From assembly GCA_904419495.1 (NCBI GenBank), contig CAJFRV010000002.1:27245-91244 (forward strand): 64,000 nucleotides of DNA, read 5' to 3'. Both the position numbers and the translations under genes were made by a program. This DNA is from an uncultured Clostridia bacterium. GTDB lineage: Bacteria > Bacillota > Clostridia > TANB77 > CAG-508. The notes beneath the pieces are model-generated. The model had not been told where the DNA came from. It worked only from the letters and a program-made list of their open reading frames with translations, and did not search any database. This document shows, one piece after another, positions 15,649-36,442 of this stretch (position 1 is the stretch's first letter; each line of letters starts with the position of its first letter).

Positions 15649-15840
15649 TTCTCTTATTTTAAACAAAGGCTAGGTAGATATCTTAAAAATATTAAATATC
15701 ATTAGATTGAAATGAAATATAGAATTTGTTTTTATAAAAAAAGAGGCTCATTTTTTATAATTACAAATTCTTATTGAATGGAATGATAAGATATTTAATA
15801 TTTTTAAGATATCTACCTAGCCTTTGTTGATAAGAGAAAA
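15649..15840. repeat. Long inverted repeat / hairpin element (39-bp perfect arms, extended to about 50 bp, 89-bp spacer)
   Basis: 15662-15700 (AACAAAGGCTAGGTAGATATCTTAAAAATATTAAATATC) pairs perfectly with 15790-15828. The flanks TTCTCTTAT / ATAAGAGAA extend the pairing. The spacer has its own dyad (GAATTTGT...ACAAATTC). Confidence 0.85.
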
Positions 15841-15842
15841 TA

Positions 15843-15873
15843 GAAAAAACCATTTCTATCCAGAAATGATTTT
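15843..15873 (-). terminator. Intrinsic terminator after the giant-protein operon
   Basis: The minus strand reads CATTTCTggatAGAAATG followed by GTTTTTTC, about 15 nt after the stop at 15887. Confidence 0.55.
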
Positions 15874-15886
15874 TCTATAATTTATT

Positions 15887-18800
15887 TTATTTTCTCAAGA
15901 CTTTTCTTTTAATGATAACAATTCCTACTCCAACAACTACTAAAATACCAATTCCTATTGCTCCATATAAAATATATTGTCTATCATCACCTGTAGGTCC
16001 TGTAATTGTTAACTCAACAGAATCATCATCTGGCTCATTAGGTGTATTTGTTGTTGGATCATAGTTTCCGGGGATTGAATCAATTGTTTTTCTTCCTTTT
16101 AATTTAATTACTTCAATGTCATTCTCATAAGTTAAATCATCTGATGAAACAGATAATTGTTTTGAAACTACCATAGTTGTATCTACTGCTTCTGAACCCG
16201 GTTCCATATTTTCAAATATAGGGTTTTTCAAATGAATTATATTTTGAAGATTTTTTACAACTTCATATGCATTATCTGCAAGCAATACTCCCTTCATGTC
16301 TGGTGTTATTTCTATTGATTCCCAGTTTCCATCTGTTGATTCTAATACTAATTCCTCTGGTAAATAGTCAAACATGTCTACGATTGTTGTAATTCTATAT
16401 TTATTTTCTTTGTCTGCTGGAACTGTACCATAAATATAGTAGTCCTCATCATTATAATCTATTTCACAATTCTTGTTGTCAACTGTTATTTCATAAGTTA
16501 TTCTTAATGTTGCACCTTGAATAACTTCATCATCTACTTCGATGCTTACATTACCATTTGGTAACATTTTTACACCAGATATATTTTGGCTTCTTGGGTC
16601 TCCATTCATTAAGGTTACACCATTAGATAATGTAATTTGGATATTTGATATTTCCTTATTAATTAATAGAGATTGTCTAGGTCTTTCTATAATACCAAAG
16701 TCTATATTATCAAATACAAATTTTAAGTCTGCTCCATATTCACTGATATTATCTAAATTAATATCATAGTCTAATTTTATATCAAATCTTCTTGTATCTG
16801 CTACAATTTCTGTTACATCTCTACTTTCAGTTGCTGTTGCATAATTAAATTCTTCTTCTGTAATTCTTTCATTAACATATTCATCATTGTCTTTTGCATC
16901 TGATAGCCTAATAGCACCTTCATGGCTAGTTTCGCCTCTGTACCAATAATCTGTCATGGCATTAACAGCTGATTTATTTCCTCCTCTGTATATTGTAGAT
17001 TTATAATTATCTGCATCTACATTTTTTATAACGTTACCATTTGTATCACAAATTACACTATTGTCACCATAAGTATATCGAATAATATATTTTCCCGGAA
17101 TAACGCCTACAAAACTATATTCACCTTTTCCTCCTGTAGTCGTTGTTGCGTCAACAACTGTATTATCTTTCTTATATAATTTACCTAATGCTACATTTCC
17201 TGAGTCATCTATTGTCATTAAATCAACTTTAACATTATTAACAATATTTTCTGCTGATTGATATTGTCCATCACCCATTCTATGTTTATCATATCCTGTT
17301 CCTTCTAGTAATTCCTCTATTGGTGCATCTTCCCAAACAGTACCTTCTATTATTCTTCCTTCTTTCAATGTAAGAATTAATGATGGTGCCCAGTTTGTAT
17401 CATCTTCATATGTATCTCTATTATTTGGTGTTGCTGTATCTGGAGCAGAGTCCACATCTATTCCTGCATAAGGAGTTGAGAAGCTATTATTCTGATATGT
17501 AGAATATGAGGTAATTTCAGTAATTGAATTTAATGTTGCATTTCCGTTCAATAATGCATTAATTGCATCATTACTTAATTGATAACGAACTGTTATTGTT
17601 TTTGAAGTTTGTGGTCCTAATGTTTGATTTACATTAATATTCATCTTTTTCAAACCATTTACATGGTAACTATTATCAATTTGATAATCAATTGCTTTTC
17701 CATTTTGATCTGTTATACTGATATTCTCATATCTATCATCATAATAATTTGCTATTGTTTTTACTGTACTATTTAAACTTGTTGCTTCATTTGTTAATTC
17801 AATTTTATAAGTCATATACATCTTTAATTTGCCTTCATTTCCAGCTTGGGCATTATATACAACATCTGATGTATAAATTTCTCTTGTATATGAACTATTG
17901 AAGTATTTACTAGCAAATCTAACAGCTATATTTGATACATCTCCTCCTGCAAAACCATTAGGGTCTGCAGATACTTGTCCATATTTATAGGTATGTGTAT
18001 AATTATTAAGTTGTATTTCTATCTTTTCAAGGTCTTGTTCTGATACGTTTAAGTCAGGCATTTCTCTTTCTTCTAGACCTAAATTGATTCCTGCTATTTC
18101 TTCTACACAATTTTTTCTTATGTCATTTGCTGTATATTGTGTACATAACGCTTTACCACTATTTTTATTAGTTGTAGCTGTTATCTCATATTGTGCATAT
18201 ACACCTGATATTGGATAACTTTGTCCATTATATCCATATTTTACAGAGTCTCCATAAACAACCTTACTCTTATAGTCACTGTATGTATATTTTATATTAT
18301 ATGTTTTTTGTCCACTTGTATTTTGAGATTGTCCTTTACTAATAGTTGCATAATTTTTATTAAAGTTATCTCTTAATGACGTATCTGTCGCACTATTCTT
18401 AACACCATTAATCTTGCTATTACTTAATGTGAAGCTTGAATTAATTGGTATTGATTGATAACTCATTCCATTATATTCAAATTCTATATAAGCACCTTGT
18501 AAATCATCTATTTTTATTTTAAGTGCACTAGAATCTGTATCATAATTTCCAAAGATATATGCTCCATTTGCGTCTGTTACTGCTGTATCTAATACTGTTC
18601 CATCTGCTTTCTTCAAGGTAACTGTTATATTTTGCAATCTTTTATCTTCTGTTCCTTGCTTCCATTCGTAGTCTTTATTACTTCCTTTTCCATCTGTCTT
18701 ATCTTCCCATGCATATCCATTTATTTTTATATATTCCCTTTTATTTTTCATGGTCAATGTATTAAATAAATTATCTGTTTGTCCTGCACTTGTACCAGTA

Positions 18801-21553
18801 TTGTTTGATGTTTGTCTATCTACTCTTATTTGTGCAGTATTTCTTGAGCCATTGCCTAGGTTACTTGTCCATGTTATATTAGCATCTGCTACTACATATC
18901 CAAAGTTATCACCAATTGATACCTCTGAAACACTATATGTTCCCACTAATAAATTATAAATTCTTATATTTCCACTGCTATCTGTAATGAATTGTGTCGC
19001 TTTATTGGTATCTGTAGTTGTTTGAATATTTCCTAAATGAATTGTTCCCGTTACTTTTGTTTGCGTAGCTCCACTTGTATCTACTGCAATGATATATCTT
19101 CCTTGACTATCTTTTATTTTAAATGATACACCTGGTAATGCATATTGATTATTATCTGCATCTGTTTTATGTATCTTCATATTTCCTGTTTGTTTTCTAT
19201 TTTTTATCGTTAATGTATTAAATAAATTATCTGTTTGTCCTGCACTTGTACCTGTATTGTTTGATACTTGTTTATCTACTCTTATTTGTGCAGTATTTCC
19301 TGAGCCATTGCCTAGATTGCTTACCCATGTTATATTAGCACCTGCTAATATATATCCATAATTATCTCCAATTGATACCTCTGAAACACTATATGTTCCC
19401 ACTAATAAATTATAAATTCTTATATTTCCACTGTTATCTGTAATAAATTGTGTTGCTTTATTGGTGTCTGTGGTTGTTTGAATACTTCCTAAATGAATTG
19501 TTCCTGTTACTTTGCTTTGTGTAACTCCGCTTGTATTTACTGCAATAATATATCTTCCTTGACTATCTTTTATTTTGAATGATACACCTGATAATGCATA
19601 TTGACTATTATCTGCATCTACTTTATGTATCTTCATATTTCCTGTTTGTTTTCTATTTTTTAACGTTATAGATGCTGTTTGCCCATTTGATATTGAAACT
19701 GATACATTATTTGCTAAAATCGTATATCCATAATTTGGATTTTTCTTTTCAATAATTTCATAATTACCAACATCTAAACCATTAACAACTATTTTTCCCG
19801 TTGTTGCGTTTGTTACAAAAGTTGTACCATTTGCTTCATTTGTTGTATATGCATTTAATGGATCTGTAATAGCATATGAACTACTTGATATTTTATTTGC
19901 TATTACATATCTGTTTGTATCTTTATTTCTAATCTTAAATTCTACATTTCCTAATTTGGTATTAAAATTATCTTCATCAACCTTTTCGATTGATAGGTTT
20001 CCTATTTTTCTATAGTCTTTAATTTTTATTTTTGTGATTACATTATTTTCACCTTTTAGTTGAACATTAATCGGTCCTGTTATATTATAATCTACATATA
20101 AATTTGATTCGCCAGTATATCCATATTCTACAGTTGCACTAACTATCTTTGTCTGGTAATTTGTAGCATCTGAATTGATTTCTTCTATATAATAACTATG
20201 CTCTACAGATATATTGTCTAATGTAACTGTTCCATTTGCTGATGTAAATATAGTAGTTGCATTTTCTGCACTTTCTGAATAAGATGTATTTCCGTCAAGT
20301 GTTATAGTTACTTGATCTCTAATTTCATTTACATTGTTTATTCTCATATATCGTCTTGTATTTCCTTCCAAGCGATATATTTTAAATCCTAAAGCATTTA
20401 CATTTTCATAACTCTGTATTCCTGTATATGTACCCTCTTTTTGAACAGTTAATTTTCCTAAACTATTTCTCGCTGAAAGTGTAATACTATCATTTGTTGT
20501 TTCTGTTATAATTTCACCATCACCTCTGAAAACAGCCGTTCCTTGTCCTCTATTAGAACCTATGAAAATAACTCTAGCTTTAATAAAGCCTGTTGTTTGT
20601 TCTCCTGTAACTGGATTTGTAATAATTCCTCCACCTGCTGTTCCTTGTGTATTGATTGTAACAGAAGGATATAAACTAGTTAATGTACTATTGGTAACAA
20701 TATAAAAATTATTTCCATTCATTGGTATACCCCAAATGCCTTGTATATCTCCTCCTATTGCATTAGAAAAACCTACTACAGCTGGCCAATTATATCCATC
20801 TTGTATACTAACACCACTAATTGTTCCACCTTCTGCATACATATTAAATGGTCCTATATAGCTATAACTTATTCCATAAGGATCTTGTGCTATTACTACA
20901 GAAGCATTACTATCATTTCCATATGTAATACGTGCACTAGACCCAACTACTTCACTATTTGCATATTGATCAGCATATGCCAATACAGTTGCACCTGAAC
21001 TTGCCGCAGTATCTAAGTAAGCATCTCCATCATTTTTTTTCAAACTAAAATTCCCAATTAAATATTGTAAATCTGTTGTTGTATAGAAATAATAAAATGC
21101 ATCTCTAGGTCCGTGTAAACGTGAACCTATTAACCCTGTTCCTGGATCTACTGTGGCAGCATATGCTAAATATGCTAATTTTTTTGCATTAAAATCATTA
21201 TCCTGGTTTGATACACCATCTTGATTATAAATAGATGTACTATACTTACCTTTTTCATCACGATTAATGTCAATAATACTCATAATTCTATTATAACCAC
21301 CTACACCTGTAACTCTTCTATCAGCAAGACATATCCATTGTGTTTTATCATTTGCTCCAGAATAGTCATTGATTCTATCATCTACTTGATAATTGTCCCA
21401 GAAGGCAGGGTCATTTGCAGCTGCTTGATCTGATATCTCTGAAGCTGTAAATACATTATAAGCATGAACTATACTTGTCAACATGAAAATTATAAAAAGT
21501 GCTATCACTATAATAGAAAGTTCTATAATTTGCCTTTTATGTATATTTTTCAT
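15887..21553 (-). CDS. Giant surface protein B2, paralog of the thioester-domain adhesin B1. It has a degenerate TED-like N-terminus, SpaA/Cna-B-type domains, SdrD-B-like and DUF11-like domains, and a [ST]xxTG-TM-basic tail
   Basis: About 1888 aa. The ATG at 21553 has AGGAGGGG upstream, 13 nt after the A2 stop; the ORF track starts at 21583. It has a signal/anchor helix. It is homologous to B1 over the N-terminal domain (FNAKKLAYLAY / YNAKLAHIL; AYLDTAASS...YADQYANSEVV / SYLDSQSSDYANEVAN). It contains repeated KNRKQTGNMKIHK.DADN..YAL.GVSFKIKD modules. The blocks GYAWEDKTDGKG..., DVDSAPDTATPNNRDTYEDDTNWAP and GTVWEDAP... match B1. The C-terminus is LTITGPTGDD + TM + KRKVLRK. Confidence 0.8.
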   Translation of the reverse strand: MKNIHKRQIIELSIIVIALFIIFMLTSIVHAYNVFTASEISDQAAANDPAFWDNYQVDDRINDYSGANDKTQWICLADRRVTGVGGYNRIMSIIDINRDEKGKYSTSIYNQDGVSNQDNDFNAKKLAYLAYAATVDPGTGLIGSRLHGPRDAFYYFYTTTDLQYLIGNFSLKKNDGDAYLDTAASSGATVLAYADQYANSEVVGSSARITYGNDSNASVVIAQDPYGISYSYIGPFNMYAEGGTISGVSIQDGYNWPAVVGFSNAIGGDIQGIWGIPMNGNNFYIVTNSTLTSLYPSVTINTQGTAGGGIITNPVTGEQTTGFIKARVIFIGSNRGQGTAVFRGDGEIITETTNDSITLSARNSLGKLTVQKEGTYTGIQSYENVNALGFKIYRLEGNTRRYMRINNVNEIRDQVTITLDGNTSYSESAENATTIFTSANGTVTLDNISVEHSYYIEEINSDATNYQTKIVSATVEYGYTGESNLYVDYNITGPINVQLKGENNVITKIKIKDYRKIGNLSIEKVDEDNFNTKLGNVEFKIRNKDTNRYVIANKISSSSYAITDPLNAYTTNEANGTTFVTNATTGKIVVNGLDVGNYEIIEKKNPNYGYTILANNVSVSISNGQTASITLKNRKQTGNMKIHKVDADNSQYALSGVSFKIKDSQGRYIIAVNTSGVTQSKVTGTIHLGSIQTTTDTNKATQFITDNSGNIRIYNLLVGTYSVSEVSIGDNYGYILAGANITWVSNLGNGSGNTAQIRVDKQVSNNTGTSAGQTDNLFNTLTIKNRKQTGNMKIHKTDADNNQYALPGVSFKIKDSQGRYIIAVDTSGATQTKVTGTIHLGNIQTTTDTNKATQFITDSSGNIRIYNLLVGTYSVSEVSIGDNFGYVVADANITWTSNLGNGSRNTAQIRVDRQTSNNTGTSAGQTDNLFNTLTMKNKREYIKINGYAWEDKTDGKGSNKDYEWKQGTEDKRLQNITVTLKKADGTVLDTAVTDANGAYIFGNYDTDSSALKIKIDDLQGAYIEFEYNGMSYQSIPINSSFTLSNSKINGVKNSATDTSLRDNFNKNYATISKGQSQNTSGQKTYNIKYTYSDYKSKVVYGDSVKYGYNGQSYPISGVYAQYEITATTNKNSGKALCTQYTANDIRKNCVEEIAGINLGLEEREMPDLNVSEQDLEKIEIQLNNYTHTYKYGQVSADPNGFAGGDVSNIAVRFASKYFNSSYTREIYTSDVVYNAQAGNEGKLKMYMTYKIELTNEATSLNSTVKTIANYYDDRYENISITDQNGKAIDYQIDNSYHVNGLKKMNINVNQTLGPQTSKTITVRYQLSNDAINALLNGNATLNSITEITSYSTYQNNSFSTPYAGIDVDSAPDTATPNNRDTYEDDTNWAPSLILTLKEGRIIEGTVWEDAPIEELLEGTGYDKHRMGDGQYQSAENIVNNVKVDLMTIDDSGNVALGKLYKKDNTVVDATTTTGGKGEYSFVGVIPGKYIIRYTYGDNSVICDTNGNVIKNVDADNYKSTIYRGGNKSAVNAMTDYWYRGETSHEGAIRLSDAKDNDEYVNERITEEEFNYATATESRDVTEIVADTRRFDIKLDYDINLDNISEYGADLKFVFDNIDFGIIERPRQSLLINKEISNIQITLSNGVTLMNGDPRSQNISGVKMLPNGNVSIEVDDEVIQGATLRITYEITVDNKNCEIDYNDEDYYIYGTVPADKENKYRITTIVDMFDYLPEELVLESTDGNWESIEITPDMKGVLLADNAYEVVKNLQNIIHLKNPIFENMEPGSEAVDTTMVVSKQLSVSSDDLTYENDIEVIKLKGRKTIDSIPGNYDPTTNTPNEPDDDSVELTITGPTGDDRQYILYGAIGIGILVVVGVGIVIIKRKVLRK
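18756..19667. repeat. In-frame tandem duplication, 2 x 456 bp (152 aa), inside B2
   Basis: AATGTATTAAATAAATTATCTGTTTGTCCTGCACTTGTACC... begins at 18756 and again at 19212. The encoded units differ at roughly one residue in nine by eye. Confidence 0.9.
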
Positions 21554-21566
21554 AATACCCCTCCTT

Positions 21567-24500
21567 CTATATTTTTCTTTCATTTGGTCTTAATATTTTT
21601 TTATTAATTATGAAAACTGTTACTGCTGTTACAATTAAAATTGTCATAATGATTGATATAAATATAATCATTCTACCTGTTCCTACAGTTATAATAACTT
21701 CTGCTCTTCCATAATCATCTTCTGAAGCATTATTATTTCCCGGTGTTGAATCTGTATCATTAATGCCTAAAGAATTTGATGCTTCTTCAATTTCCGCTGT
21801 ATTGATAATTGTTCCTGTATTATCACCTGTTACTGTTTTTGTTAATACTAATTCTACAGTCTGTGTTTGTCCCGGCTCTATAGCTATATTTGATAAACTA
21901 TTATTTTGTAGATTAGAATTTGCCTGATACCAATTTTTATTCAATTCTGAACTAAAACTTAAATCAGATGGCATATAATCTACTAAGTTTTGAACATATC
22001 CAGCTATTTCTCCTGTATTTTTTATTTGGACTATATATTTAATAATAACAGTTGCATTATTAATTTCCTTTGATGGTATTTCTACTTTTACTAAATTTTG
22101 ATTATTATATCCATATTTTGTTGTACTTTTATTTGTTTGTACAACAATCTCACTTACATATTTGTTTAATTCTAAATCAAATGTTGATACTTCCATTAAT
22201 CCTATATCTATGTTTTCTATATTTGAAGAATTTACATTAATTGTATCTGTAGCCCCTACTGTAATATTTGTACCATCAATTGTAATTGTTTTATTTATAA
22301 CATCTGAATTTTCATTTTCTTGAACACCTTGTTTTCTATATTCTGTAAGTCTATACATTTGCGTATTATATGTAAATACTAAAATATAACTTCCTTGTGT
22401 GACATGAATCTCATATTGTCCATTTTCTGAAGTAGTTGCATTTACTCCTTCTACATAATTTCCTGTATTTGCGTCTATTACACTAACACCAACACCAGAT
22501 AAGATTTCCTCTTGTGCATCTCTTCTGCCGTCTTTATTTGCATCTATCCATGCAGTACCACTAATTGTATAAGTTTTCTCTTCACTAGGGTTGTCTGGAT
22601 TATCTGGATTGTCTGGGTTATCTGGGTCTGGATTGTCCGGATTATCTGGATCTGGGTTGTCTGGATTATCTGGATCTGGGTCGTCTGGATTATCTGGATC
22701 TGGGTTGTCTGGATCCGGATCATCTGGGTTTGGATTGTCTGGATCTTCTGTTTTCACAACTTTGTACACAATATCATTAGATGTTATATCTCCTGCTATA
22801 GTAGAAACTGTTAAGTTATTTACTAATTCACCATTTTCTAATTCTGAAATATCCGCATGACCAGATATTTCTAAAATACTAGTAGCATTTCCTTCTATGG
22901 TATATCCTTCTACATATACATCTCCTGCCTCTAATGTTTTACCATCTAAAGTGACTGTATCAACATAAATACCTTTTGGAATATAGTCATATAAAGTTGT
23001 AACAATCGCATTTGCTCTCATATTTTTAATATAAAATGTATATATAATGTCTTGTCCATCTTCTATTGTTGTATTCGTTTCTGGATTTGCTACTTGCATA
23101 ATCTCTACCCATGCTGCTTCTTCTCTTTGTATTAAAAATTGCTTTTCGGATTGCACACCATATTTCCATTCATATGTATAACCACTATCTTCTTCCGCTA
23201 ATTTTCCATAAGTAACATCTACTATATTATTAACAGAATCTGTTGTAATCCATTCACTATCTATTTCTATAGTCATCGTAATTTCTATGCTTGATTGTCC
23301 AGATAATAATGTTTCTCCTGTTAATCTATTTTCATATATTTTAAATTCTATATCTTCATTGTCTTCTAAATTGTCCACTATTGGTATTTGTATTTCTTCA
23401 TTGCCAACAATTCCTTTTGCACTTTTAACTGTAAATCCTTTTGGTAATGTATCAAATACCCCAAAACTTAATTCTTCATCTTCATTATTATGAACCTTGA
23501 TTGTTAAATCAAAAGTATCCTCATCTTTTAACTTTACATCATCTGCTATATTAGCAACTTGTTCCACTGATATATTTCTTTTTTCATTTAATACTTTTAC
23601 AATGGCTGTATTAGAAACGTACGTATGATTTGTTGTCATTTCAAACATGAAAGCAAAATTTTCTTCTTTTTCTATGTGTTCATCTACTTGAACATATAGT
23701 TCTAATTCAGTTATTTCTCCTTTTTTCATACTTAGCATATCAAATGTAAGTTCATTATTTTCTTTATCATAAGCAAGATTTTCTAATTTTTCTCTACCTG
23801 CTGTTGAATCTTCTTCTCCATTAATTGTCGTTTGTGCCCAAATTAAGTCTGTTCCTGAATTACAATATATTTTATCTGGTAATTGAATTTTTCCTTTTAT
23901 ACGTTCTAAGTCCTCTCCTGAAATATTTTCAACTTTTATATTTAATTGCAATTTTTGTCCTAAATAAATTGTTTCTTCTTCATAATATGAATTGCTAATA
24001 GTTAATTTAAGTTCTGCTTGTTTGATATTATTTTTAATTGTTGAGAAATTTGCAGCCTCCATATCATCAGCTGTTATTTGAATATCTCCATATGTCTGCT
24101 TATCCTCTCCTTCTACTTCTGAAGCAACAATTTCATAAGAAATAATTGTGCTTTCTCCATTAGCTAAACTTTCTATTGTTGCAAAGTTATTTACATTTGT
24201 GTCTAACTCATCATAACGGTGATATATTTTTGTAAAATCTTCTCCTAATACAGGGTCAAATGCTTCTTCTCCAATTAATCCATAAATATTTCCATTCGTT
24301 TGTGTTGCTTTTACATGTATATTTTTTAAATCTTTTCCTGTGCTATTTGTTATTTTCATTGTATACAAAATCTTTTGACCCTCATATACAGAATCTCCAT
24401 CTCCTAGTTCTGCTCCTCCTGAAATTGTAGATAATTCTATATTTATACCATTTCCTACTTTTTCTTCTATAGTATTAGCTAGTGCTGAAATATTATTTGT

Positions 24501-27044: not shown

Positions 27045-27327
27045 AAACAACTACTCCCTCACACATATTTGATACTATTCTTATCCTATATTAGCTTTTA
27101 GGGATATAAAAATCAATATTAAATTTTTCCAATTACTTTTTTATTACAAAATTTTTCTTAGATACCCTTACGGATAGTATTTTCCCATTATCTTGGTTCC
27201 ATTGTTTTAAAATTTCTTTACATTTTTATTACATTTTTTATATTTTCTGATAAAAATATGCTTCTTTCGTTATTTGCGTATGTTTTTCGTTATTTTTTGC
27301 ACTTAATATCCATTTTTGGTGATACAT

Positions 27328-27365
27328 AAAAAAATGAGATTGCATTAATCAATCTCATTTTTTTG
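27328..27365. terminator. Bidirectional-type intrinsic terminator separating module 1 (A1-B1) from module 2 (A2-B2)
   Basis: A-run + AATGAGATTG cattaat CAATCTCATT + T-run, 16 nt after the B1 stop at 27381. Confidence 0.7.
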
Positions 27366-27380
27366 TATTTGATTTACCCA

Positions 27381-30300
27381 TTATTTGTTTAGTACTTTTT
27401 TCTTAATGAATACAATACCTGTTCCTATGATAACACATGCTGCTATACCAATGACTATTGGAATTATATAATTTAAGTTTTCACCTGTATTTGGTGTGAT
27501 AATAACTGTTTCTGCCATATCATCATCTGGTTCTACTGATGGTCCTGTACTTGGAATATAATTTCCCGGTGTTGATGTTAAGTCAGATCCACCTGTTTTA
27601 TCAACTTTTACAATTTCTGTCTCATTATTTAATTCAATGTCTTCTGATGCAGATAATAATTTTGAAACATTTAGCATAACTGTTGCATTTTGTGTAGGCT
27701 CTAAATTGTATCTACTTAAAGATTCTGTATATAATATTGTCTTTTCATTTATTGTAGAATTTTCATCATTATATACTACCTCTGCTAAATCGAGTCTACC
27801 ATCATCACTTTGTATTACTTCCCAATCTGGGTTATCTGTTGTACTAAAGCTCCAATCATTATCTAAGTAATCTACAATTGCTGATGGTGTGATAGTAACA
27901 ACACTACCTTCTATAATTCCATATTTATAATAGTTTTCAGATAAATAATCTAATTCACTATTATTATCTGTCCTGATTTCATAACTAATTTCTAGTCTTG
28001 CACCTTCAATTAACTCACTATCCATCTCTAATCTAATTAATCCATTTTGTGGTGATGAATTTTCTGAAGGTGGAATATATGTTATACTTGAAGTTTGTCC
28101 TTCTAATGTACCATCTTCTTTTACTTCGAAGTTTGTTAATACTATACCATTTGCTAAAGTAACCTTCATTGTTTTTACACGTTTATTTAAGGTTAAATCT
28201 TGTCTTGCTCTTTCTACAATACCAAAATCAATATTCTCAATTCTATATACATATCTATCTCCTGCTGATGCTGTATAGGTTGTTTCATATTCTACACCAA
28301 TTCCCATTGTTGGCGTTGTTGAATCCATTTTATCAATTGTTGTCTGTGTAGAATTTGTAATTTGTTTTAATTCATTATCAATATCTAATCTTGTTTGATA
28401 ATCATCTACTGCATCAGTCCATCTTGTATCTATGTCTGTTTTATACCATTCTTTATTTGCCATATTGGTATCATATCTGTCTTTACCATATACAGTTCCT
28501 TTATAATTTTGTACAGTATATGTTGTATCTCCCCAAGTATAAGTTATTGTATAATCTCCCGGTATAAAATCTGAAATATAGAAATCTCCATTTTCATCTG
28601 TTGTTGCTGTATATACTTTTCCACTTCCCGTGTTCTCCTTAAGAGTTACTGTAACACCTTGTATTCCTGTCTCTCCATCTTCATAAGCTCCACTACCTTG
28701 TCTAATTTGTCCTGTTAATAACTCTCCTGACGTAGAATCTAGGAATACTTTACCGGCTATTTCTCTTGCGTCAGCTACTTCTAATTTTAATGATGGGCTT
28801 GAATCTGTGTCATCTTCATATGTTGCTCTGTCCCCCGGTACTGCATTTCCCGGATTTGAATCCACATCTACACCTGCATAAGCATTTCCATTTTCATCAA
28901 ATGTTGAATATGAATTAATTTCTACAACATTGTCTAAGTTTTCTCCATCATTTAATATATTGATGACTGCTTCTCTACTTAATTCAAATTGCACATAAAT
29001 TTCAGTTTGTGTTTGTGCCTCTATTTTTGAATTTGTATAAATAATTGCTTTTGAATATGCATCATTATAACCTTCTTGTGCATAATCTATATTTCCTGTA
29101 ATCATACCTTCTTGATTAATTCCTGTTCCCACTGCTGTCATTGTATATCTACTATCAAAATAATCTACTAAATTATTTACTTGTGATGTTAAACTTGTTG
29201 ATTCATTTCTTACTGCAATTTTATATGTTATATATACTTTTAATTCTTTGCTCTTATCTTGTTCATTGATATATTCATAATCTGCTTTGTAAATTGCTCT
29301 TGTATAAGTTTGACTTGCATATTCACTTCCAAATTTAACACCTACATTAAATCCATCTCCATATTCTCCTTGATTTTGGAATCTTTGGTCATATTCATAT
29401 ATATGTTGATATCCATTAATAGCAAGTCTTACATTTTTCATATCTTTAATCAATGCTAAATCTGGTTGTTCTCTTTCATATAATCCTAAGTTGATATATG
29501 GTATTTCTTCCATTCCATATTCAAATTGGTCTTTTATGCTATAACCAGTTTCATCTGTATTTGCCGTTATTGGGTATTGACCAACTGGTAATCCTTCATT
29601 AACTAATGTTGAGGTATGTTGTTCTCTATCTTTTAAATATGTTAATTCGTGTACTCTATTTCCATTTTCATCTAAAGTAATACCTGTTGTTTCAGAAGTT
29701 CCTTCTATTGTGCTAAAATCTTTATTAAATTCACTTCTTGTTTCAGGATTTTCTGCTGCCTTAGAACCATTATCTACATCTATATGTGGAACAACATTTG
29801 TATAAGTTAGTCCATCATATTTAAATTCCATATAATAGTTTTGTAAATCTTCTATTCTAACATTTACAAATTGATAATATCTTAAGATTCCATCTCCTAA
29901 TTGAATTTCTTTTGTTTTAGCTCTAAATTCATTTCCGTCGTCATCTTTTACAACTTCTCCTGTTCTTCTATCAATTAGTCTAACAACAACATCTTCCATT
30001 AATATGTCTTCTGAATCATAATCATTATCTCTATATAAATCATTTCTCTCAGATTGTTTTGCATATTGTTTGTCTAGCCATACATATCCAGAAAGTTTTA
30101 CATAAACTTGTGTATTTTCTATCACAAATTCTTCTGTCTTATCTATTACAACAGTTCCTTCTATGCCTTCTGATATAATCTCATATCCATAATTTGGATT
30201 TTTAGTTTCATATGCTACATATGTACCTACAACTAAATTTTCAATAAAAATTTCACCATTTTCATCAGTAACAAATTCTGTTGCTTGGTTTTCTTCTACA

Positions 30301-31328
30301 TAAGTAATAGTTCCATCTGCTGCTTTATGTACATATTTTCCAGTATCTTTATTTTGAATTTTAAATCCAACACCTTGTAATTTGATTTCATGATTATCTT
30401 TATTTACTTTGATAACTTTTAAATTTCCTAGTAAATCTATATCATATTCAAAAGGTGTTTCATATTCATATGGTGTATCATATGGTTCTCTATATATCAT
30501 ATTCTGATAGTTGTACCCGCTTTGTGATTCTAAAAACCAAATTGTTACACCTTTTACAGATACACTTCCTTTGGCTGTAATTGTTGTTATTTTGTTAATT
30601 CCACTGCTAATTGGTATAGCTATATAGAAATCTTTTCCTGACTTTATGTCCCCAATACCAATTTCACTTTCTGTTGTCCCATTATATGTAGTAAATTTTA
30701 ATCCACTTACCAAATCTCCATTTTGATTTTTTACACCGATTTCACTTAAAGTTCCTGAAAAGTACCAATTAAATGGTCCTACTTTTATATAATTTCCATC
30801 AGATTTCACACTTAAATTTTCTTTTTTCGTATTATCTGATATTCCAAGATTTGCTACTTCATTTGCGTAATCAGATGATTGAGAATCTAAATAAGAATTA
30901 CTTCCAGACACATTGCTTGCAAATCCATCATATAAACCTGCATGATATTGACCTACATTTTTCATCCATGTATGCATATAATTCCATATAGCATTTTGCA
31001 CTGGTCCAGACTGTTTATATGCTCCATTATCTGCTGACAAAATATGTGCTAATTTTGCATTATACCAACTTTCTATACTTTTTCCTGTATGATCTGTTGA
31101 CGTATTTCCTCGTATATCCACTTGAGATATAACTTTATATGTTAATGTTCCACGCATTGACTGATGATGTTCTACACAAAATAGATTTGAATCTTCTAAA
31201 TAATCACTAAATGTTATAGTAACATCTTGTCCTACAGTATATGATGCTGCTTTTGATATATTGGTATATCCTATAACTGCTATTATTATCATTATTAGAG
31301 TAACTAGCATTTTTTTCATTTTATTCAT
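27381..31328 (-). CDS. Giant surface adhesin B1 with an N-terminal thioester (TQxA-type) domain, a SpaA/Cna-B-type domain, SdrD-B-like and DUF11-like domains, and a [ST]xxTG-TM-basic tail
   Basis: 1315 aa with a signal peptide. Cys51 sits in NLFCVEHH, matching [FY]C[ILV][EDQ]. Gln111 sits in GPVQNAIWNY, matching TQxA[IV]W. The Cna-B/SpaA-like block is GNLKVIKVNKDNHEIKLQGVGFKIQNKDTGKYV...LVVGTYVAYETKNPNYGYE. It also has DVDSNPGNAVPGDRATYEDDTDSSP. The C-terminus is VIITPNTGEN + TM + KKKVLNK. An AAGGAGGG RBS lies 18 nt after the A1 stop. Confidence 0.85.
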   Translation of the reverse strand: MNKMKKMLVTLIMIIIAVIGYTNISKAASYTVGQDVTITFSDYLEDSNLFCVEHHQSMRGTLTYKVISQVDIRGNTSTDHTGKSIESWYNAKLAHILSADNGAYKQSGPVQNAIWNYMHTWMKNVGQYHAGLYDGFASNVSGSNSYLDSQSSDYANEVANLGISDNTKKENLSVKSDGNYIKVGPFNWYFSGTLSEIGVKNQNGDLVSGLKFTTYNGTTESEIGIGDIKSGKDFYIAIPISSGINKITTITAKGSVSVKGVTIWFLESQSGYNYQNMIYREPYDTPYEYETPFEYDIDLLGNLKVIKVNKDNHEIKLQGVGFKIQNKDTGKYVHKAADGTITYVEENQATEFVTDENGEIFIENLVVGTYVAYETKNPNYGYEIISEGIEGTVVIDKTEEFVIENTQVYVKLSGYVWLDKQYAKQSERNDLYRDNDYDSEDILMEDVVVRLIDRRTGEVVKDDDGNEFRAKTKEIQLGDGILRYYQFVNVRIEDLQNYYMEFKYDGLTYTNVVPHIDVDNGSKAAENPETRSEFNKDFSTIEGTSETTGITLDENGNRVHELTYLKDREQHTSTLVNEGLPVGQYPITANTDETGYSIKDQFEYGMEEIPYINLGLYEREQPDLALIKDMKNVRLAINGYQHIYEYDQRFQNQGEYGDGFNVGVKFGSEYASQTYTRAIYKADYEYINEQDKSKELKVYITYKIAVRNESTSLTSQVNNLVDYFDSRYTMTAVGTGINQEGMITGNIDYAQEGYNDAYSKAIIYTNSKIEAQTQTEIYVQFELSREAVINILNDGENLDNVVEINSYSTFDENGNAYAGVDVDSNPGNAVPGDRATYEDDTDSSPSLKLEVADAREIAGKVFLDSTSGELLTGQIRQGSGAYEDGETGIQGVTVTLKENTGSGKVYTATTDENGDFYISDFIPGDYTITYTWGDTTYTVQNYKGTVYGKDRYDTNMANKEWYKTDIDTRWTDAVDDYQTRLDIDNELKQITNSTQTTIDKMDSTTPTMGIGVEYETTYTASAGDRYVYRIENIDFGIVERARQDLTLNKRVKTMKVTLANGIVLTNFEVKEDGTLEGQTSSITYIPPSENSSPQNGLIRLEMDSELIEGARLEISYEIRTDNNSELDYLSENYYKYGIIEGSVVTITPSAIVDYLDNDWSFSTTDNPDWEVIQSDDGRLDLAEVVYNDENSTINEKTILYTESLSRYNLEPTQNATVMLNVSKLLSASEDIELNNETEIVKVDKTGGSDLTSTPGNYIPSTGPSVEPDDDMAETVIITPNTGENLNYIIPIVIGIAACVIIGTGIVFIKKKVLNK

Positions 31329-31346
31329 TTCCTATTCCCTCCTTTC

Positions 31347-34300
31347 TTACTGTTCTTCTTTTGAATTTTTTCTTATTACAATGATTCCTGCTGTAATTCC
31401 TGCTACTACAACAATTGCTATAATGATTCCTATTGACATATATACAACTCCACCAGTTCTAATACTAATAATAACATCTGCTGCTCCTGTGTCATTCTCT
31501 CCAGCTACATTATTTCCCGGTGTTGAGTTTTCATCTTCAAATCCTAAATTATTATAGTCTTCATAAATTTCTGCATTATTTCTTGATACAACATTATCTT
31601 CTCCCATTTTCTTGGTTAATGTCAATGTTACGGTTTTTGATTCTCCCGGATTGATAATTTCATTTCCTAATGTTGTTGTATATAAAGAATTACCTTCTTC
31701 ATACCAGTCTTTATTTAATTCTGAACTAAATTCCAAATCACTTGGCATATAGTCTATAATACTTCTAGCATATCCTGCAACTTCTCCTACATTTGTCACC
31801 ACAATGCTATATTCAATAATAACATTTGAACCTTGTATTTGTTTTGCATCCAACTCAATTTTGGCTGTTGTTGTATTATTGTACTCTCTAACTGTTGTTC
31901 CCGCAGAGTTTTGAACTAATATTCTACTAACATATTTATCTAATTTCAAATCAAAATTTTGTAACTCAATCAATCCAATATTAATATCTGATATATTCTC
32001 ATTATCAATACTAATCATATCTGTTGATGCTACCTCTTGTCTTTCATCTCCTATTAGTAATTCATTTAACCTTACATCAGAATTTTCTGCATCGCTAATT
32101 CCTTCTGCTTTATATTTTGTTAATGTATATTGATCTCGATTATATTCAAATATAACAATATATTGTCCATTTGCTATATTATCTAATACATACATTCCAT
32201 TTTCATTTGTTGTCGTTGTTAATAAATCTCCTGAAGTATCTTTTACAAATTGATTTGTATCTACATTTAATAATTTTACAGTTACATTATCTAAAGTATT
32301 TTCTTCCTCGTCTTTCTTACCATTACCATTTGCATCATACCAAGCTAAACCACTAATCATTTGCTCTCCATCTGCGACATTTCCAGTATTATCTCCATTA
32401 TTATCAGTATCTCCGTTATTATCTCCTGAAGTATGATCTTCATCTACAACATCAGCTTCTATAATATGATTTAACTCAGATGTACTTGCAATTTCTTCTC
32501 CATATATGCTAGCAACTGCTCTATTAGTAATCGTTTCTGCTTCTGTTCTACCTTCTGAATAATTAACAACTGTTTCTATTACAATTGTCATAGTTTCATT
32601 TGCTGGTATTTCATTTTGTATTTCTACACTATTTGATGCTACTTGTACTTCTTCTCCATTTTTTGTTACTTTGTTAATTGTTAATTGAGAAGGAATTTCA
32701 TCTCTTATAACAAGTCCTGATGTTTGAGATGTACTGTTATTTCTTACAGTAATTGTATATTGAATCATATCTCCTGATTTTACATATTTGTTTTCTGTAT
32801 TTGTTTGCATTGTCATATCAATGTCAAAACTATTTACTTTATCTGTCCAAGAGTTTGATTGGTATTCTTTTTGTCCATCTGATGAAATTACTGAAAAATC
32901 AATTGTATCTACGGTATTGTCTGGCATCTTATTAATTATCATATTATAACTTAATACCTTTAATTCTCCCGGTGCCAATGTTCCAATATTAATTTCATCA
33001 CTATATTCTATAATTTCTGATTGTGTATCCTCATTAATTGCACTATCATTTCCTTCTTTTACATCTATCGTTTCTCCTGTTGATATTGGATATAATTCAT
33101 CATCATTAACTTCATTTTCACTCATTCCTGAAATTAATGTTAATCTTGCTACATCTAAATTTTCAGATTTATTTGTTTTTACAGTAACATTTTCAATTGT
33201 CTCAGATGATATATTTTTTATAATTGCAAAGTACTCTACCATACCAGCTTCATATAAATCAACTTTTCTGTCTGTTACTCTTTTTACCATTGTTCTTAAA
33301 TTTCCTGACTCTGATAATACTTTTAATTCATTAGTCTCTTGAGTAACATCCAAATAGTTAATTTCAACTGTATTTGCTATTGAAGTATTTTCAGCCGTAT
33401 TTGAACTTACCATAACCTCATATTCAACATATTTTACTTCTCCAACAGCTAAACTATCAATTGTTGCCTCAAATTTATCTGCATCAACACCTTTATAATA
33501 TGAAGCACCTGTATATTCATAATTATCTACTGGTTTTACTAATATAGTTCCTTCTGGTATCATTCCTGTTACTTTTACATTTGTCACATTTTCTGAACCA
33601 ACATTAGATACTTGTATTCTATATTTAATGACTTCACCATTTTTTATTGTATCTAAATTTGTTAATTCTTTACCTGCTAAAGTCGCTGTTAATTTACTTT
33701 CTAATTTTGGTCCAATACCTGTTCCCATCTCAATTGTAGTTGCTTTTACTGTATTTTCATTTTTTGCTTGCCCTTTTGTATATGTAACTTCATATCCTTC
33801 TTTTGCTACTTGATTATATTCTAGATTTTCTGGTATCTCTATCATATATGATCCATTAACAACTGTTCTTGAATCAATTTTGTCCATTACAATTAAATAT
33901 TTCTTTACTGTTTCTGGATTTGATATATTTTGACTCCATCCATTTTCTGTATTATTTATATCTGTTGTTGCATTTTCATTTTCTGTATAATATACTGTAC
34001 CATTATTTACATTAATACCATTTACAACTTTGATATTCATTGTGTTTTGTTCTGTCTTTGTTGGGAATGTTCCCATTACATTAACATTCTCTACATTTTC
34101 TTCATTGTTATTTATAATTTCAAAATCTACTTCAACTTGTCTACTCTCTGCTCCTCTTGCTAAACTTACATTTGCTGTTTCTTCTTCACCTACAGTTTCT
34201 ATATTTAAGGCTTTAATGCTGTTAATTGCTGTTACATCTTTTGGAGCAACAATTTCTAATTCTTTAGAAATTTTTCCTATTTCTTCATTATTTGCATACC

Positions 34301-36275
34301 CATTTGCTTTTTCGTTTGTATATGTCACATAAATATTTTCTGGTTTTGCAATAGATGTTCTATTAACATTTATTGTTGCATTGATAATTATATTTGCACC
34401 TTCTACTGATTGTGCTTTATATGCAGTTTGCTCGCCTTCCATTTGAATGGTTATATATCTACCATCTACTGAATAGTTTGCAATTTTCAATTCCTCTTCA
34501 TATAGTAAATCTATACTGTTAATTTGGATATTTTCTACTTGCTCTGGTAATTCTATTGTAAATGTTGGATTTCTATATAAATCTCTAGATTCCTCATCTG
34601 TTTTTAAAATTAATTTCATTTCTATATCGTTTGCTATAACTGTTGATAACGAACTTCTATTTAATTCTAATTTTGTCTCTGTTACTGACTCATCTAATTG
34701 TATTTTCATTTCTGTTTCGGCTTTTATACCCATTGTATATGTTTGTTCTTTTGCTTCTATATTTTTTTCGTTATAATTATTATATCCATATACAATTTTT
34801 GTAGAAATCATATTTGCTGCTCTTACAACATTTATATCAGAAGACCCTATTGTCTTTGTATGATTAAATTCTAAATTTCCTTCAGCAATTGGTTTAGAAG
34901 TTCTAATTTCTATTCCTTTTGGTTCTCTTCCTGTATAATCAATTACAAAATTTCCATTTTCATCTGTTTCCATATCGTTATTTATTGTAACCAATAGTTG
35001 ATTATTTTCATTATAAATTTCAATTTTTCCTTCTTCGCCAAAAATTTTATCGAAACTTTCTTTATTAATAGTTGTTGTATTATAATATATATTACCTTCT
35101 ATTTCTCCTTCAGGTAATATATATCTACTAGCTTCCTCTTTTATAGATACATATTCTTCGATGTTTGCAAGGTTAACATCTAATGTAGTCTTACTATTAT
35201 ATTTTCTATCTATTCCTGAATATAATTTTCCTTTATAAATATTTTTTTCTGCATTGTTTGCTTTTACTTCTATTGTAGAATCAACCTCTTTATTTGTTAA
35301 TGTGACTGCCCCTACATTCGAATTTAATTCTTTGTCATTATATAAAGTTAATGTTTCTTCAGAAAGGATTTTTACATTTTCTAAATTAACATCTGCATCA
35401 TAAATATATGTTAATATGACATTTTCATTTCCTTGTTTCTTCCATAATATTTGATTATCTTTTGATTTTTCATTTTTTAATGTTATTTCTACATAACCAT
35501 TTTCATATTTATATTCAGATGCTGACATTGTGTTTAAATGAATATCTCTTCTAATTTCTGGTAATTTCCCATCAATCTCTGGAACATTAATTTTAGTATA
35601 AATTTCTTTTACTGGATAATTTTCCTCTTTTAATCCCATATTAAATGATAATTGTAAAACTCTTTTATCTTCTCCAGATATTTTTATAACTTTATTTGTT
35701 ATAATTTGTATACTATTTTCAATATTATCATTTGTATTTGTTTCTACTAATTGCATAGAAACATTTCTTGTAGCTTTTATTTGGATGTCCTTTTCTGTAC
35801 TATCTCTATAAATACCTGTCAATGTTAATTCACTTTCACAATTTAACATATTTAAATCTATTGTTTCATCATTAACTGGTTTTATCTTTACTTCTATCTC
35901 TGCAGAAGTTCCTGCATTTATTTGATTTAAATATATTTTATTATCTGCTACATTACTTACAAAGTCACTTTCTGAACTTACCAGATTGAAATTTGCATTT
36001 GAAAGTGCAACTTCTCCCATAAAGAATCCTTCTTTATTTACATTTACAGATACATATAAAGAAGTTTCCTGCATATCTGCTGTTCTTTCTAGTGTAGTGG
36101 TCTTTTCTCCATCAGCATTTTTAAAATATGCACTAAATTCTATATTTTTATGGTTTGTTGACATATTATCTGATGCATAAGATATAAGACTTGAACCTAA
36201 AAATAAAAAATTAGTCATTGTTAGTGTCATTATTAATATAATAATTACACTCGTTTTTAAGATTTTGTTTCTCAT
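31347..36275 (-). CDS. Giant surface protein A1, paralog of A2: signal peptide, many DUF11/Ig-like repeats, SdrD-B-like domain, terminal DUF11 domain, [ST]xxTG-TM-basic tail
   Basis: 1642 aa. The N-terminus is colinear with A2 (EFSAYFKNADGEK / TFDAYFKTDSGN). DUF11 repeats include GEVIKYRIQVSNVGSENVTNVKVTGMIPEGTILV. It also carries ISGLAWYDANGNGKKDEEEN... and NNAEIYEDYNNLGFEDENSTPGNNVAGENDTGAADVIISIRTGG + TM + RKNSKEEQ. An AGAGGAGG RBS is present. Confidence 0.8.
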   Translation of the reverse strand: MRNKILKTSVIIILIMTLTMTNFLFLGSSLISYASDNMSTNHKNIEFSAYFKNADGEKTTTLERTADMQETSLYVSVNVNKEGFFMGEVALSNANFNLVSSESDFVSNVADNKIYLNQINAGTSAEIEVKIKPVNDETIDLNMLNCESELTLTGIYRDSTEKDIQIKATRNVSMQLVETNTNDNIENSIQIITNKVIKISGEDKRVLQLSFNMGLKEENYPVKEIYTKINVPEIDGKLPEIRRDIHLNTMSASEYKYENGYVEITLKNEKSKDNQILWKKQGNENVILTYIYDADVNLENVKILSEETLTLYNDKELNSNVGAVTLTNKEVDSTIEVKANNAEKNIYKGKLYSGIDRKYNSKTTLDVNLANIEEYVSIKEEASRYILPEGEIEGNIYYNTTTINKESFDKIFGEEGKIEIYNENNQLLVTINNDMETDENGNFVIDYTGREPKGIEIRTSKPIAEGNLEFNHTKTIGSSDINVVRAANMISTKIVYGYNNYNEKNIEAKEQTYTMGIKAETEMKIQLDESVTETKLELNRSSLSTVIANDIEMKLILKTDEESRDLYRNPTFTIELPEQVENIQINSIDLLYEEELKIANYSVDGRYITIQMEGEQTAYKAQSVEGANIIINATINVNRTSIAKPENIYVTYTNEKANGYANNEEIGKISKELEIVAPKDVTAINSIKALNIETVGEEETANVSLARGAESRQVEVDFEIINNNEENVENVNVMGTFPTKTEQNTMNIKVVNGINVNNGTVYYTENENATTDINNTENGWSQNISNPETVKKYLIVMDKIDSRTVVNGSYMIEIPENLEYNQVAKEGYEVTYTKGQAKNENTVKATTIEMGTGIGPKLESKLTATLAGKELTNLDTIKNGEVIKYRIQVSNVGSENVTNVKVTGMIPEGTILVKPVDNYEYTGASYYKGVDADKFEATIDSLAVGEVKYVEYEVMVSSNTAENTSIANTVEINYLDVTQETNELKVLSESGNLRTMVKRVTDRKVDLYEAGMVEYFAIIKNISSETIENVTVKTNKSENLDVARLTLISGMSENEVNDDELYPISTGETIDVKEGNDSAINEDTQSEIIEYSDEINIGTLAPGELKVLSYNMIINKMPDNTVDTIDFSVISSDGQKEYQSNSWTDKVNSFDIDMTMQTNTENKYVKSGDMIQYTITVRNNSTSQTSGLVIRDEIPSQLTINKVTKNGEEVQVASNSVEIQNEIPANETMTIVIETVVNYSEGRTEAETITNRAVASIYGEEIASTSELNHIIEADVVDEDHTSGDNNGDTDNNGDNTGNVADGEQMISGLAWYDANGNGKKDEEENTLDNVTVKLLNVDTNQFVKDTSGDLLTTTTNENGMYVLDNIANGQYIVIFEYNRDQYTLTKYKAEGISDAENSDVRLNELLIGDERQEVASTDMISIDNENISDINIGLIELQNFDLKLDKYVSRILVQNSAGTTVREYNNTTTAKIELDAKQIQGSNVIIEYSIVVTNVGEVAGYARSIIDYMPSDLEFSSELNKDWYEEGNSLYTTTLGNEIINPGESKTVTLTLTKKMGEDNVVSRNNAEIYEDYNNLGFEDENSTPGNNVAGENDTGAADVIISIRTGGVVYMSIGIIIAIVVVAGITAGIIVIRKNSKEEQ

Positions 36276-36358: not shown

Positions 36359-36387
36359 ATTATACCTTTTTTTTGTTGATTTTTCAA
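36359..36387 (-). promoter_or_regulatory. Candidate sigma-A promoter of the A1-B1 operon (TTGAAA-17-TATAAT)
   Basis: The minus strand reads TTGAAA (36387-36382), a 17-nt spacer containing a run of 8 A (8 T on the plus strand at 36367-36374), then TATAAT (36364-36359). This lies about 85 nt upstream of the ATG at 36275. AT-rich DNA makes chance matches likely. Confidence 0.45.
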
Positions 36388-36415
36388 GCTTTTCCATGGT
36401 TTTTTTGTGGTTTTT

Positions 36416-36442
36416 TTACATTTTTGTTACAATATAGTTACA
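36416..36442 (-). promoter_or_regulatory. Three TGTAA direct repeats at exact 11-bp phasing upstream of the A1 promoter; candidate response-regulator site
   Basis: The plus strand has TTACA at 36416, 36427 and 36438. The paralogous A2 upstream region keeps two of them (27218, 27229), also 11 bp apart. Confidence 0.3.

Follow-up and report, generated by a model that had tools for sequence, protein, structure and literature searches.

Two paralogous operons in an uncultured gut Clostridia bacterium probably encode coupled pairs of very long fibrillar surface proteins, one of each pair with a thioester-type head

A 64-kb stretch of DNA from an uncultured gut Clostridia bacterium (hereafter the window, to whose full length all coordinates refer; AT-rich, with a G+C content of ~27%) carries four giant genes on its minus strand, arranged as two modules, A1–B1 and A2–B2, that together occupy ~20 kb. 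We propose that the modules are two paralogous bicistronic operons, each of which probably encodes two fibrillar surface proteins, both very long and anchored to the cell, that are functionally coupled. The A protein of each pair appears to be a stalk without a recognisable head, and the B protein carries a predicted thioester-type head on a stalk of its own. The host lineage is one of uncultured, spore-forming gut Clostridia.

Results

Two paralogous A–B modules

A sequence-only reading of this DNA had placed four giant minus-strand genes here, and open reading frames (ORFs) for proteins of 1642, 1315, 1825 and 1888 amino acids (aa) are indeed present:

31347–36275, minus strand: A1 gene, 1642 aa (ORF)
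27381–31328, minus strand: B1 gene, 1315 aa (ORF, Pfam, AlphaFold/Foldseek and sorting-signal model)
21567–27044, minus strand: A2 gene, 1825 aa, paralogue of A1 (likely ATG at 27044; length as called in ENA)
15887–21553, minus strand: B2 gene, 1888 aa (likely ATG at 21553, behind AAGGAGG; an identical protein is present in a public collection)

Both genes of module 2 lie in longer ORFs, 21567–27050 for A2 (up to a TTG at 27050) and 15887–21583 for B2. An N-terminal signal peptide and a C-terminal transmembrane helix with a basic tail are predicted in all four proteins. In A1, the signal peptide is followed by about eight immunoglobulin (Ig)-like domains, a CLIPPER/DUF11 region, an SdrD_B domain, a terminal DUF11-like domain, and the motif SIRTG with the transmembrane helix and basic tail. 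B1 runs from its signal peptide through a Class II-like thioester domain, a SpaA (CnaB-type) domain and two SdrD_B plus DUF11-like units to a TPNTG signal, and B2 comprises a diverged thioester-type head, an extra domain, three SpaA domains, two SdrD_B units and a TGPTG signal. The two A proteins are colinear paralogues, as the sequence-only reading had it, with 28% identity across 1044 aa, rising to 42% in the last 338 aa at the C-terminus. The same holds for B1 and B2, which share 31% identity over ~1100 aligned columns in BLASTP; this alignment leaves the N-domains out, and they align by profile comparison only. The C-terminal module is homologous between the A and B proteins as well.

A and B are invariably paired and often fused in relatives

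An alignment of the B1 head was scanned against one genome per species (GTDB representatives), yielding 74 loci, nearly all from uncultured Clostridia-type metagenome-assembled genomes (chicken, rabbit, human and other metagenomes); the proteins of this locus are also present in many gut metagenome assemblies. An A1-like gene lies directly before B in 74/74 loci, and most of them continue, ~300 nt beyond B, with another A-like gene that is itself followed by a B-like gene. Among three distant family members inspected by contig, one has the A–B–A–B arrangement, a second has B preceded by a truncated gene with spoIIE behind, and the contig of the third is too short to show the arrangement. The duplication of the module is old and widespread. 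Module 1 is well conserved and module 2 is very variable in both length and sequence, and its subtypes co-vary: an A2-like gene is followed by a B2-type head in 7/7 cases, and the other A subtype by a weak B1-type head, again in 7/7.

The second module is a single continuous in-frame A–B ORF in 25 of the 74 loci, as re-translation of the junction confirms. The fusion proceeds from an A part with xTG and a transmembrane helix, via a short K/R-rich loop, to a signal-peptide-like helix ending in AxA, and on to a Cys-containing B head and SpaA. Judged from sequence, such a protein would be workable only with the A C-terminus and the B N-terminus both cytoplasmic, which fits the predicted topologies. 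In-frame gene fusions are classical evidence for two proteins acting together. Because no relative has one without the other, and some have the two fused, A and B most likely function as a pair; the genomic linkage, the co-varying subtypes and the 25 fusions bear out the earlier view that A and B are hard-wired to each other.

Could A and B instead be independent adhesins that merely share an operon, their pairing reflecting co-regulation and block inheritance? Adhesin genes often cluster, and A and B each possess complete export and anchoring signals. We nevertheless hold this to be unlikely: gene order and spacing are kept in 74 species-level genomes, module 2 diversifies as an A–B unit, and recurrent in-frame fusions that keep both topologies are not predicted by simple co-location.

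The locus is flanked by housekeeping genes, mreC, mreD, a PBP2-type transpeptidase gene and minC on one side and spoIIE on the other, and this chromosomal site is kept in relatives. A mobile element or conjugation adhesin, considered as an origin of the genes, was rejected because relatives carry the locus at the identical chromosomal site.

Two further observations concern the relatives. The heads of fused second modules are shorter and very diverse, with Cys, GPF and FYL/I motifs retained (loci L006, L010, L012, L013, L015–L017, L020, L024, L028, L030, L033, L034, L036, L043, L044, L048, L049, L058, L059, L063, L066, L067 and L070–L072), so that the thioester-type head seems, by these sequences, to be the fastest-evolving part of the system. 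In the distant relative L076, ~3.5 kb without a called gene (20535–24021) separate the second A-like and B-like genes, which may reflect a decayed gene or an insertion.

The B proteins carry predicted thioester-type heads

Each B protein begins with a head for which a thioester-type fold is predicted:

30441–31244, minus strand: B1 thioester-type head, aa 29–296 (AlphaFold, Foldseek, conserved Cys and Gln)
20438–21448, minus strand: B2 diverged thioester-type head, aa 36–372 (hhalign against the B1-head family)

The B1 head was modelled with AlphaFold from an input alignment of 12 sequences, with the signal helix included, at a predicted local distance difference test score (pLDDT) of 87.9 and a predicted template-modelling score of 0.79. 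In a Foldseek search of the PDB, the only matches at E<1e-3 are 6fwy (EfmTIE86) and 6fwv (BaTIE), each with a probability of 1.00 and both of them Class II thioester domains; further matches appear at E>6e-3. The elements of the model follow the order described for the Class II thioester domain (TED) (PMC6194298). A strand bears Cys51, which lies in FCVE (codon 31176–31178), and three helices follow, the second of which (predicted helix 109–124) carries Q111 and W115 within VQNAIW (aa 110–115). After helix 3 come a seven-strand sandwich (163–239) and a long hairpin (246–298) with Gln275, in YQNMI (codon 30504–30506), at its tip. The model thus reproduces the order of a TED fold whose helix 3 and P-Q hairpin are separated by an inserted beta-sandwich.

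A full HMMER search with the B1 head profile returns 343 clusters at 50% identity, and among the 150 matches listed the head domain lies at or near the N-terminus, with lengths of ~1000–2000 aa for those that are full-length. The bonding Cys and Gln are the sole universal residues of thioester domains (PMC6194298). In 130 members of the B1 head family, Cys51 is present in 129 and Gln275 in 127, and the local motifs [YFL]C[VIL][QE], xQxA[ILV][WY] and [YWF]QN[L][I] correspond to the three published ones. B1 itself, with F-C51-V-E, fits the published [YFL]C-hydrophobic-hydrophilic motif, and Y-Q275-N-M-I fits the published weak hydrophobic-Q-hydrophilic-hydrophobic-hydrophobic motif close to the C-terminal end of the domain. 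The helix-2 motif, TQxx(hydrophobic)W, which is reportedly not essential for bond formation (PMC6194298), has its Q in 99/130 members and W or Y in 130/130.

The B2 head required profile–profile comparison, because BLASTP of B1 against B2 finds no head similarity and the B1-head profile scores merely 12.9 bits against the single B2 sequence. In an alignment of eight B2-type heads from relatives, the Cys is conserved in 8/8 (W[ILM]C) and the Gln in 7/7 of the sequences that cover its column (GQ[GA]T..FRGD). In B2 these are Cys75, in WICLAD (codon 21329–21331), which fits the published Cys motif loosely, and Gln337, in GQGTAVFRGD (codon 20543–20545). When this alignment is compared with the B1-head family using hhalign, the two match with a probability of 97.9% and an E-value of 3.7e-13, Cys aligning on Cys and Gln on Gln (Q337 on Q275).

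From the models and alignments we conclude that both B heads are of thioester type and belong to a family missed by current sequence models. We infer from the predicted fold and the conserved residues that a Cys–Gln thioester bond would form in them, and, by analogy with characterised thioester adhesins, the B head probably bonds its target covalently.

The Gln of B2-type heads is followed by a near-invariant F-R-G-D, with RGD in 6/7 covering sequences (window 20528–20548, B2 aa 336–347; relatives L003, L004, L011, L014 and L065). This motif may be purely structural, or may be an integrin-type motif beside the reactive site.

A and B are built as long stalks

The stalk domains of the two proteins are as follows:

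30111–30428, minus strand: B1 SpaA/CnaB-type stalk domain (Pfam SpaA; PDB 4oq1 sequence match)
18674–20002, minus strand: B2 array of three SpaA domains (Pfam SpaA; internal repeats in B1/B2 BLASTP)
33696–36143, minus strand: A1 N-terminal Ig-like array, aa 45–860 (AlphaFold, Foldseek)
32052–32348, minus strand: A1 SdrD_B domain (Pfam)
22236–22559, minus strand: A2 SdrD_B domain (Pfam)

Pfam detects SpaA at 39.9 bits together with SdrD_B in B1, and SpaA at 113.5 bits (3 stretches) with two SdrD_B domains in B2, in agreement with the SpaA/Cna-B-type and SdrD-B domains that the sequence-only reading had assigned to B. A single-sequence search of the PDB with B1 gives just one match, the SpaA-type 4oq1, and none for the head. 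By these sequence matches the B stalk contains isopeptide-type (CnaB/SpaA) domains. In A1, Pfam finds DUF11 at 58 bits (3 stretches) and SdrD_B at 48 bits, and NCBIfam finds TIGR01451 at 63.7 bits; in A2, Pfam finds SdrD_B, and a separate scan of the middle segment adds DUF11 at 30 bits. DUF11 was recently renamed CLIPPER and shown to be a stalk domain of fibrillar adhesins that is CnaA-like and carries an isopeptide bond (PMC12617251).

Pfam recognises nothing in the first 860 aa of A1. The AlphaFold model of this segment, built on an alignment of 68 homologues, is all-beta (pLDDT 88.4) and forms a string of about eight sandwich domains, for which Foldseek returns generic multi-Ig matches only (the Ig-like domains of PrgB, integrin alpha legs and macroglobulin domains). 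A recognisable adhesive head on A was thus sought with Pfam and Foldseek and set aside, neither search giving one. Since the N-terminal model is all-beta with generic multi-Ig matches, A is, as judged from sequence and model, an all-beta stalk of Ig-like, CLIPPER (DUF11) and SdrD_B domains without a recognisable head; Pfam, AlphaFold and Foldseek are thereby in accord with the earlier description of A as a stalk-like protein. The fixed presence of this seemingly headless partner, often fused to B via a membrane hairpin, indicates a two-protein functional unit.

Directly before SdrD_B, A2 has a P/D/N-rich low-complexity linker (PDNPDPDNPD...; ~22575–22760, aa ~1430–1490); the linker at the equivalent place in A1 is shorter and G/D/N/T-rich.

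Anchoring signals of two classes

A and B end in different C-terminal signals:

31350–31466, minus strand: A1 C-terminal signal, SIRTG-G abutting the transmembrane helix, then RKNSKEEQ (sequence)
21570–21689, minus strand: A2 C-terminal signal, TVGTG and a transmembrane helix (sequence)
27384–27497, minus strand: B1 sorting signal, TPNTG, a 10-aa spacer, a transmembrane helix and KKKVLNK (TIGR01167)
15890–16003, minus strand: B2 sorting signal, TGPTG (TIGR01167, just under its cut-off)

Among 65 B relatives, the motif is of the TP[ANSP]TG type, with T-G in 65/65; it stands 10 aa before the transmembrane helix in 62, and a KKK-type tail follows. Among 93 A relatives, [SG][IVL][RK]TG is found in 88, 0–4 aa ahead of the transmembrane helix. 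The NCBIfam model LPXTG_anchor (TIGR01167; cut-off 15.9 bits) is passed by B1 at 21–21.5 bits and narrowly missed by B2 at 15.1 bits.

Several findings weigh against the proposal of a coupled, thioester-headed and cell-anchored pair. The Pfam TED and NCBIfam TQXA models are silent on both heads, even at E<=1, with whole proteins and isolated heads alike, and a profile search of the PDB with the head alignment yields nothing. The Foldseek TM-scores of the B1 head are low (0.31–0.33), which may be due to the two-lobed domain and the signal helix in the model, and B2-type heads have lost the TQxxW motif, with RDAFYYF in its place. The tails of A1 and A2 match no NCBIfam sorting-signal model. A sortase motif (TLxTC or looser) occurs in no frame of the 64-kb window, nor is a sortase encoded by real ORFs within 10 kb in the 74 related loci, the only matches being spurious antisense ones. 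The sequence-only reading had called the B N-domain TED-like and had looked to TQXA/TED hidden Markov models (HMMs) for its recognition. Taken literally, that search speaks against the call, every HMM library being negative, whereas structural comparison (the B1 model matching 6fwy and 6fwv) and the conserved motifs speak for it.

Since the B tail bears a sorting signal and no sortase is encoded locally, B looks, on sequence grounds, like the substrate of a sortase encoded elsewhere. For A, either a lasting membrane anchor or processing at the variant S-I-R/K-T-G motif is possible. The earlier remark that no sortase or assembly genes are in sight holds locally, in the window and within 10 kb in the 74 relatives, but it does not extend to sortase-independence, because B ends in a tripartite TPxTG signal and the B1 tail passes the LPXTG-anchor model. 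Known Class II thioester adhesins are sortase-anchored, except TIEpLS20 (PMC8092201).

The two motif classes also bear on the idea of a pilus-like fibre, two-subunit or polymeric, in which A and B are held together covalently and a sortase would link the Thr of B TPxTG to a lysine of A. A would then form the base, anchored in the wall or membrane, with B as the thioester tip, much as the thioester adhesin Cpa sits on the FctA shaft in Streptococcus pyogenes pili. That A and B have two different, separately conserved motif classes, as in pilus subunits, is consistent with this, and so are the strict pairing, the co-varying subtypes and the fusions. A candidate lysine is Lys348, in an IYKGK motif of the A1 Ig-like array (35226–35240): Lys348-Gly349 is invariant across the 68 A homologues, with no invariant Asn/Asp partner among the conserved columns of the segment. 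However, pilus-type sortases are normally clustered with pilin genes, and no pilus-type (class C) sortase adjoins the genes in the window or in the 74 relatives. Furthermore, subunits of 1300–1900 aa far exceed known pilins, many module-2 A proteins lack the YKG motif, and the motif is IYKGK rather than YPKN, no YPKN-type pilin motif being identified. We therefore rate a pilus-like fibre as quite improbable.

A related idea, to which we likewise give little credence, is that A and B are halves of an obligate covalent hetero-fibre of an assembly kind not yet described, joined at a conserved A lysine such as Lys348. The join may be made by sortase transfer of the B TPxTG threonine or by the B thioester itself. 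If this were true, the A–TM–loop–signal–B fusions (25/74; TM, transmembrane helix) would deliver both halves to one membrane site. More generally, the single physical A–B fibre envisaged in the sequence-only reading is plausible but unproven.

Expression signals and a shared operator-like repeat

The signals found around the two modules are:

36359–36387, minus strand: module 1 promoter, TTGAAA-17-TATAAT (11/12 consensus match)
27088–27116, minus strand: module 2 promoter-like site, TTGATT-17-TAATAT (read by eye; not flagged by the scan tool)
27326–27366, no strand assigned: terminator-like hairpin after B1, with a 15–17-bp stem and flanking A and T runs (scan)
15842–15872, minus strand: weak terminator-like hairpin and T-run directly 3' of the B2 stop (too few G–C pairs for the scan tool)
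36415–36442, minus strand: three TGTAAx hexamers spaced 11 nt apart, forming two overlapping copies of TGTWAH-N5-TGTWAH, upstream of the A1 promoter
27217–27233, minus strand: TGTAATAAAAATGTAAA direct repeat upstream of A2 (pattern search)

Within each module, the B ATG lies close behind the A stop (18 nt for A1–B1, 13 nt for A2–B2), and a strong ribosome-binding site precedes each B start (GAAAGGAGGG in module 1 and AAGGAGG in module 2), just as the sequence-only reading had described. Its terminators after each module are likewise recovered as the hairpins after B1 and B2, the latter weak. Upstream regions were compared in 59 relatives for A1 and 54 for the second A gene. The module 1 promoter is conserved, TTGAAAAAT being kept upstream of A1 in 42/59 relatives. 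An Rfam scan of the window gives no match, including for cyclic di-GMP riboswitches, which control clostridial adhesins.

The upstream DNA of the two modules had also been thought paralogous. This claim reduces to a single shared 17-nt operator-like repeat, TGTAA[C/T]AAAAATGTAAA, because the upstream regions of A1 and A2 show no similarity in an overall alignment. The pattern TGTWAH-N5-TGTWAH has 4 matches in the window against 1.8 expected, two of them (overlapping) before A1 and one before A2; an exact same-strand match precedes the second A gene in 32/54 relatives and A1 in 10/59, at a background of 0.057 per kb. The pattern is the WalR consensus of B. subtilis, as quoted in PMC9210968. These sequences suggest control by a WalR-like cell-envelope regulator, as a lead and not a result.

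Such a motif upstream of both modules would also suit structural envelope components, for example of a sheath or coat, rather than adhesins, with the B thioester locking onto self (A or the cell wall). The same can be said of module 1, a conserved core pair at a fixed site between mreCD-PBP2-minC and spoIIE in all relatives. Set against this, a thioester head on a long stalk with a C-terminal anchor is the layout of host-binding thioester adhesins (PMC6194298, PMC4450167), and the hypervariable module 2 suits a diversifying contact with external targets; an envelope role is accordingly very improbable in our judgement.

Other features of the window

Two small ORFs, 36613–37128 (plus strand) and 37118–37513 (plus strand), diverge from A1 and have the intergenic region in common with the module 1 promoter. 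Neither has a Pfam match, the second has a hydrophobic C-terminus, and they are kept at the same position in 58 and 54 related loci, respectively. Between these ORFs and the A1 promoter lies a 114-bp palindrome (36445–36558) with 53-nt arms, 96% complementary, and an 8-nt loop. We considered it as a repeated or conserved element, but it occurs once in the window and is missing from the 74 related loci, so its distribution marks it as an apparent strain-specific insertion. A second, imperfect palindrome of 177 bp (15657–15833), between the B2 terminator and spoIIE, has 83-nt arms that are 75% complementary, and the outer ~32 nt of the arms are near-perfect and flank ~90 bp. Invertible segments and small mobile elements have a similar layout.

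Elsewhere in the window (5519–8503, minus strand), a 994-aa protein combines six BspA-type leucine-rich repeat regions with a C-terminal type I dockerin, a domain content that hints at a cohesin–dockerin surface system in the same organism.

Discussion

To our knowledge, thioester–isopeptide–ester (TIE) adhesins are the only bacterial adhesins known for covalent target binding, and work on them to date has regarded each as the product of a single gene, anchored by sortase. They are abundant in Gram-positive bacteria, and every domain type encountered here is already known. B resembles the Class II TIE adhesins (BaTIE of Bacillus anthracis, EfmTIE86 and SaTIE; 6fwv, 6fwy; PMC6194298) in its N-terminal signal peptide, in its CnaB/SpaA-type stalk and in its C-terminal xPxTG motif with a transmembrane helix and basic tail. 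Its head is alike in the [YFL]C-hydrophobic-hydrophilic Cys motif, the seven-strand sandwich and the long Gln hairpin, and the B1 head also has a Q/W on its predicted helix 2. In contrast to those adhesins, however, the B head is unseen by the Pfam and NCBIfam thioester models and has ~10–13% identity to the solved structures. B is also far longer (1315–1888 aa versus ~560–800), its stalk consists mainly of SdrD_B and DUF11-like units, its motif is TPxTG rather than LPxTG, and its gene invariably has a partner of A type, either directly in front or fused to it. TIEpLS20, the conjugation adhesin of the B. subtilis plasmid pLS20 (PMC8092201), is, like B, of Class II type and attached independently of a local sortase, but it lacks a sorting signal and is plasmid-borne in a conjugation operon, whereas B has a sorting signal and occupies a conserved chromosomal site.

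A, for its part, is similar to the CLIPPER (DUF11)-stalk fibrillar adhesins (PMC12617251; PMC9210967), with a signal peptide, tandem CLIPPER/DUF11 and Ig-like domains, SdrD_B and a C-terminal anchor. Unlike them, it has no recognisable head, its SIR/KTG abutting the transmembrane helix fits no curated model, and it has an obligate thioester partner. As for the pair, the Cpa-FctA-FctB pili of S. pyogenes are also made of co-transcribed surface proteins with different non-canonical xxxTG motifs and one thioester head; A and B differ from these in having no adjacent pilus-specific sortase and in being subunits 5–10 times larger, and polymerisation is not indicated.

Under our proposal, A and B would share a transcript, be produced at similar levels and leave the cytoplasm through the Sec pathway. 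A sortase whose gene lies outside the locus would cut B at TPxT|G and link it to the wall, and A would remain in the membrane or be processed at its variant S-I-R/K-T-G motif. The Cys–Gln thioester of B would covalently capture a nucleophile of its ligand, which could come from the host, the diet or other microbes; capture of this kind has reportedly been shown for SfbI and Cpa. A would act alongside B where the latter is displayed on the surface, for instance as a partner stalk anchored together with it. Module 1 would constitute the conserved core, and module 2 a diversifying cassette that shifts target range or antigenicity.

Taken together, four features are new: a family of thioester domains that Pfam and NCBIfam do not see; the invariable pairing and frequent fusion of a thioester protein with a stalk protein; the combination of TPxTG and S-I-R/K-T-G signals without a local sortase; and the organisation into two modules, one conserved and the other hypervariable, that an uncultured gut lineage keeps at a fixed chromosomal site. 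Thioester and isopeptide domains as divergent as these also offer starting material for protein-ligation tools. A thioester family of 343 clusters escapes both Pfam and NCBIfam, so any census of gut commensals that relies on their models will arrive at too few thioester adhesins. As a ~20-kb unit with one conserved and one hypervariable copy in uncultured gut Clostridia, the A/B unit is a good candidate for a determinant of colonisation and host range in organisms that are not yet cultivable.

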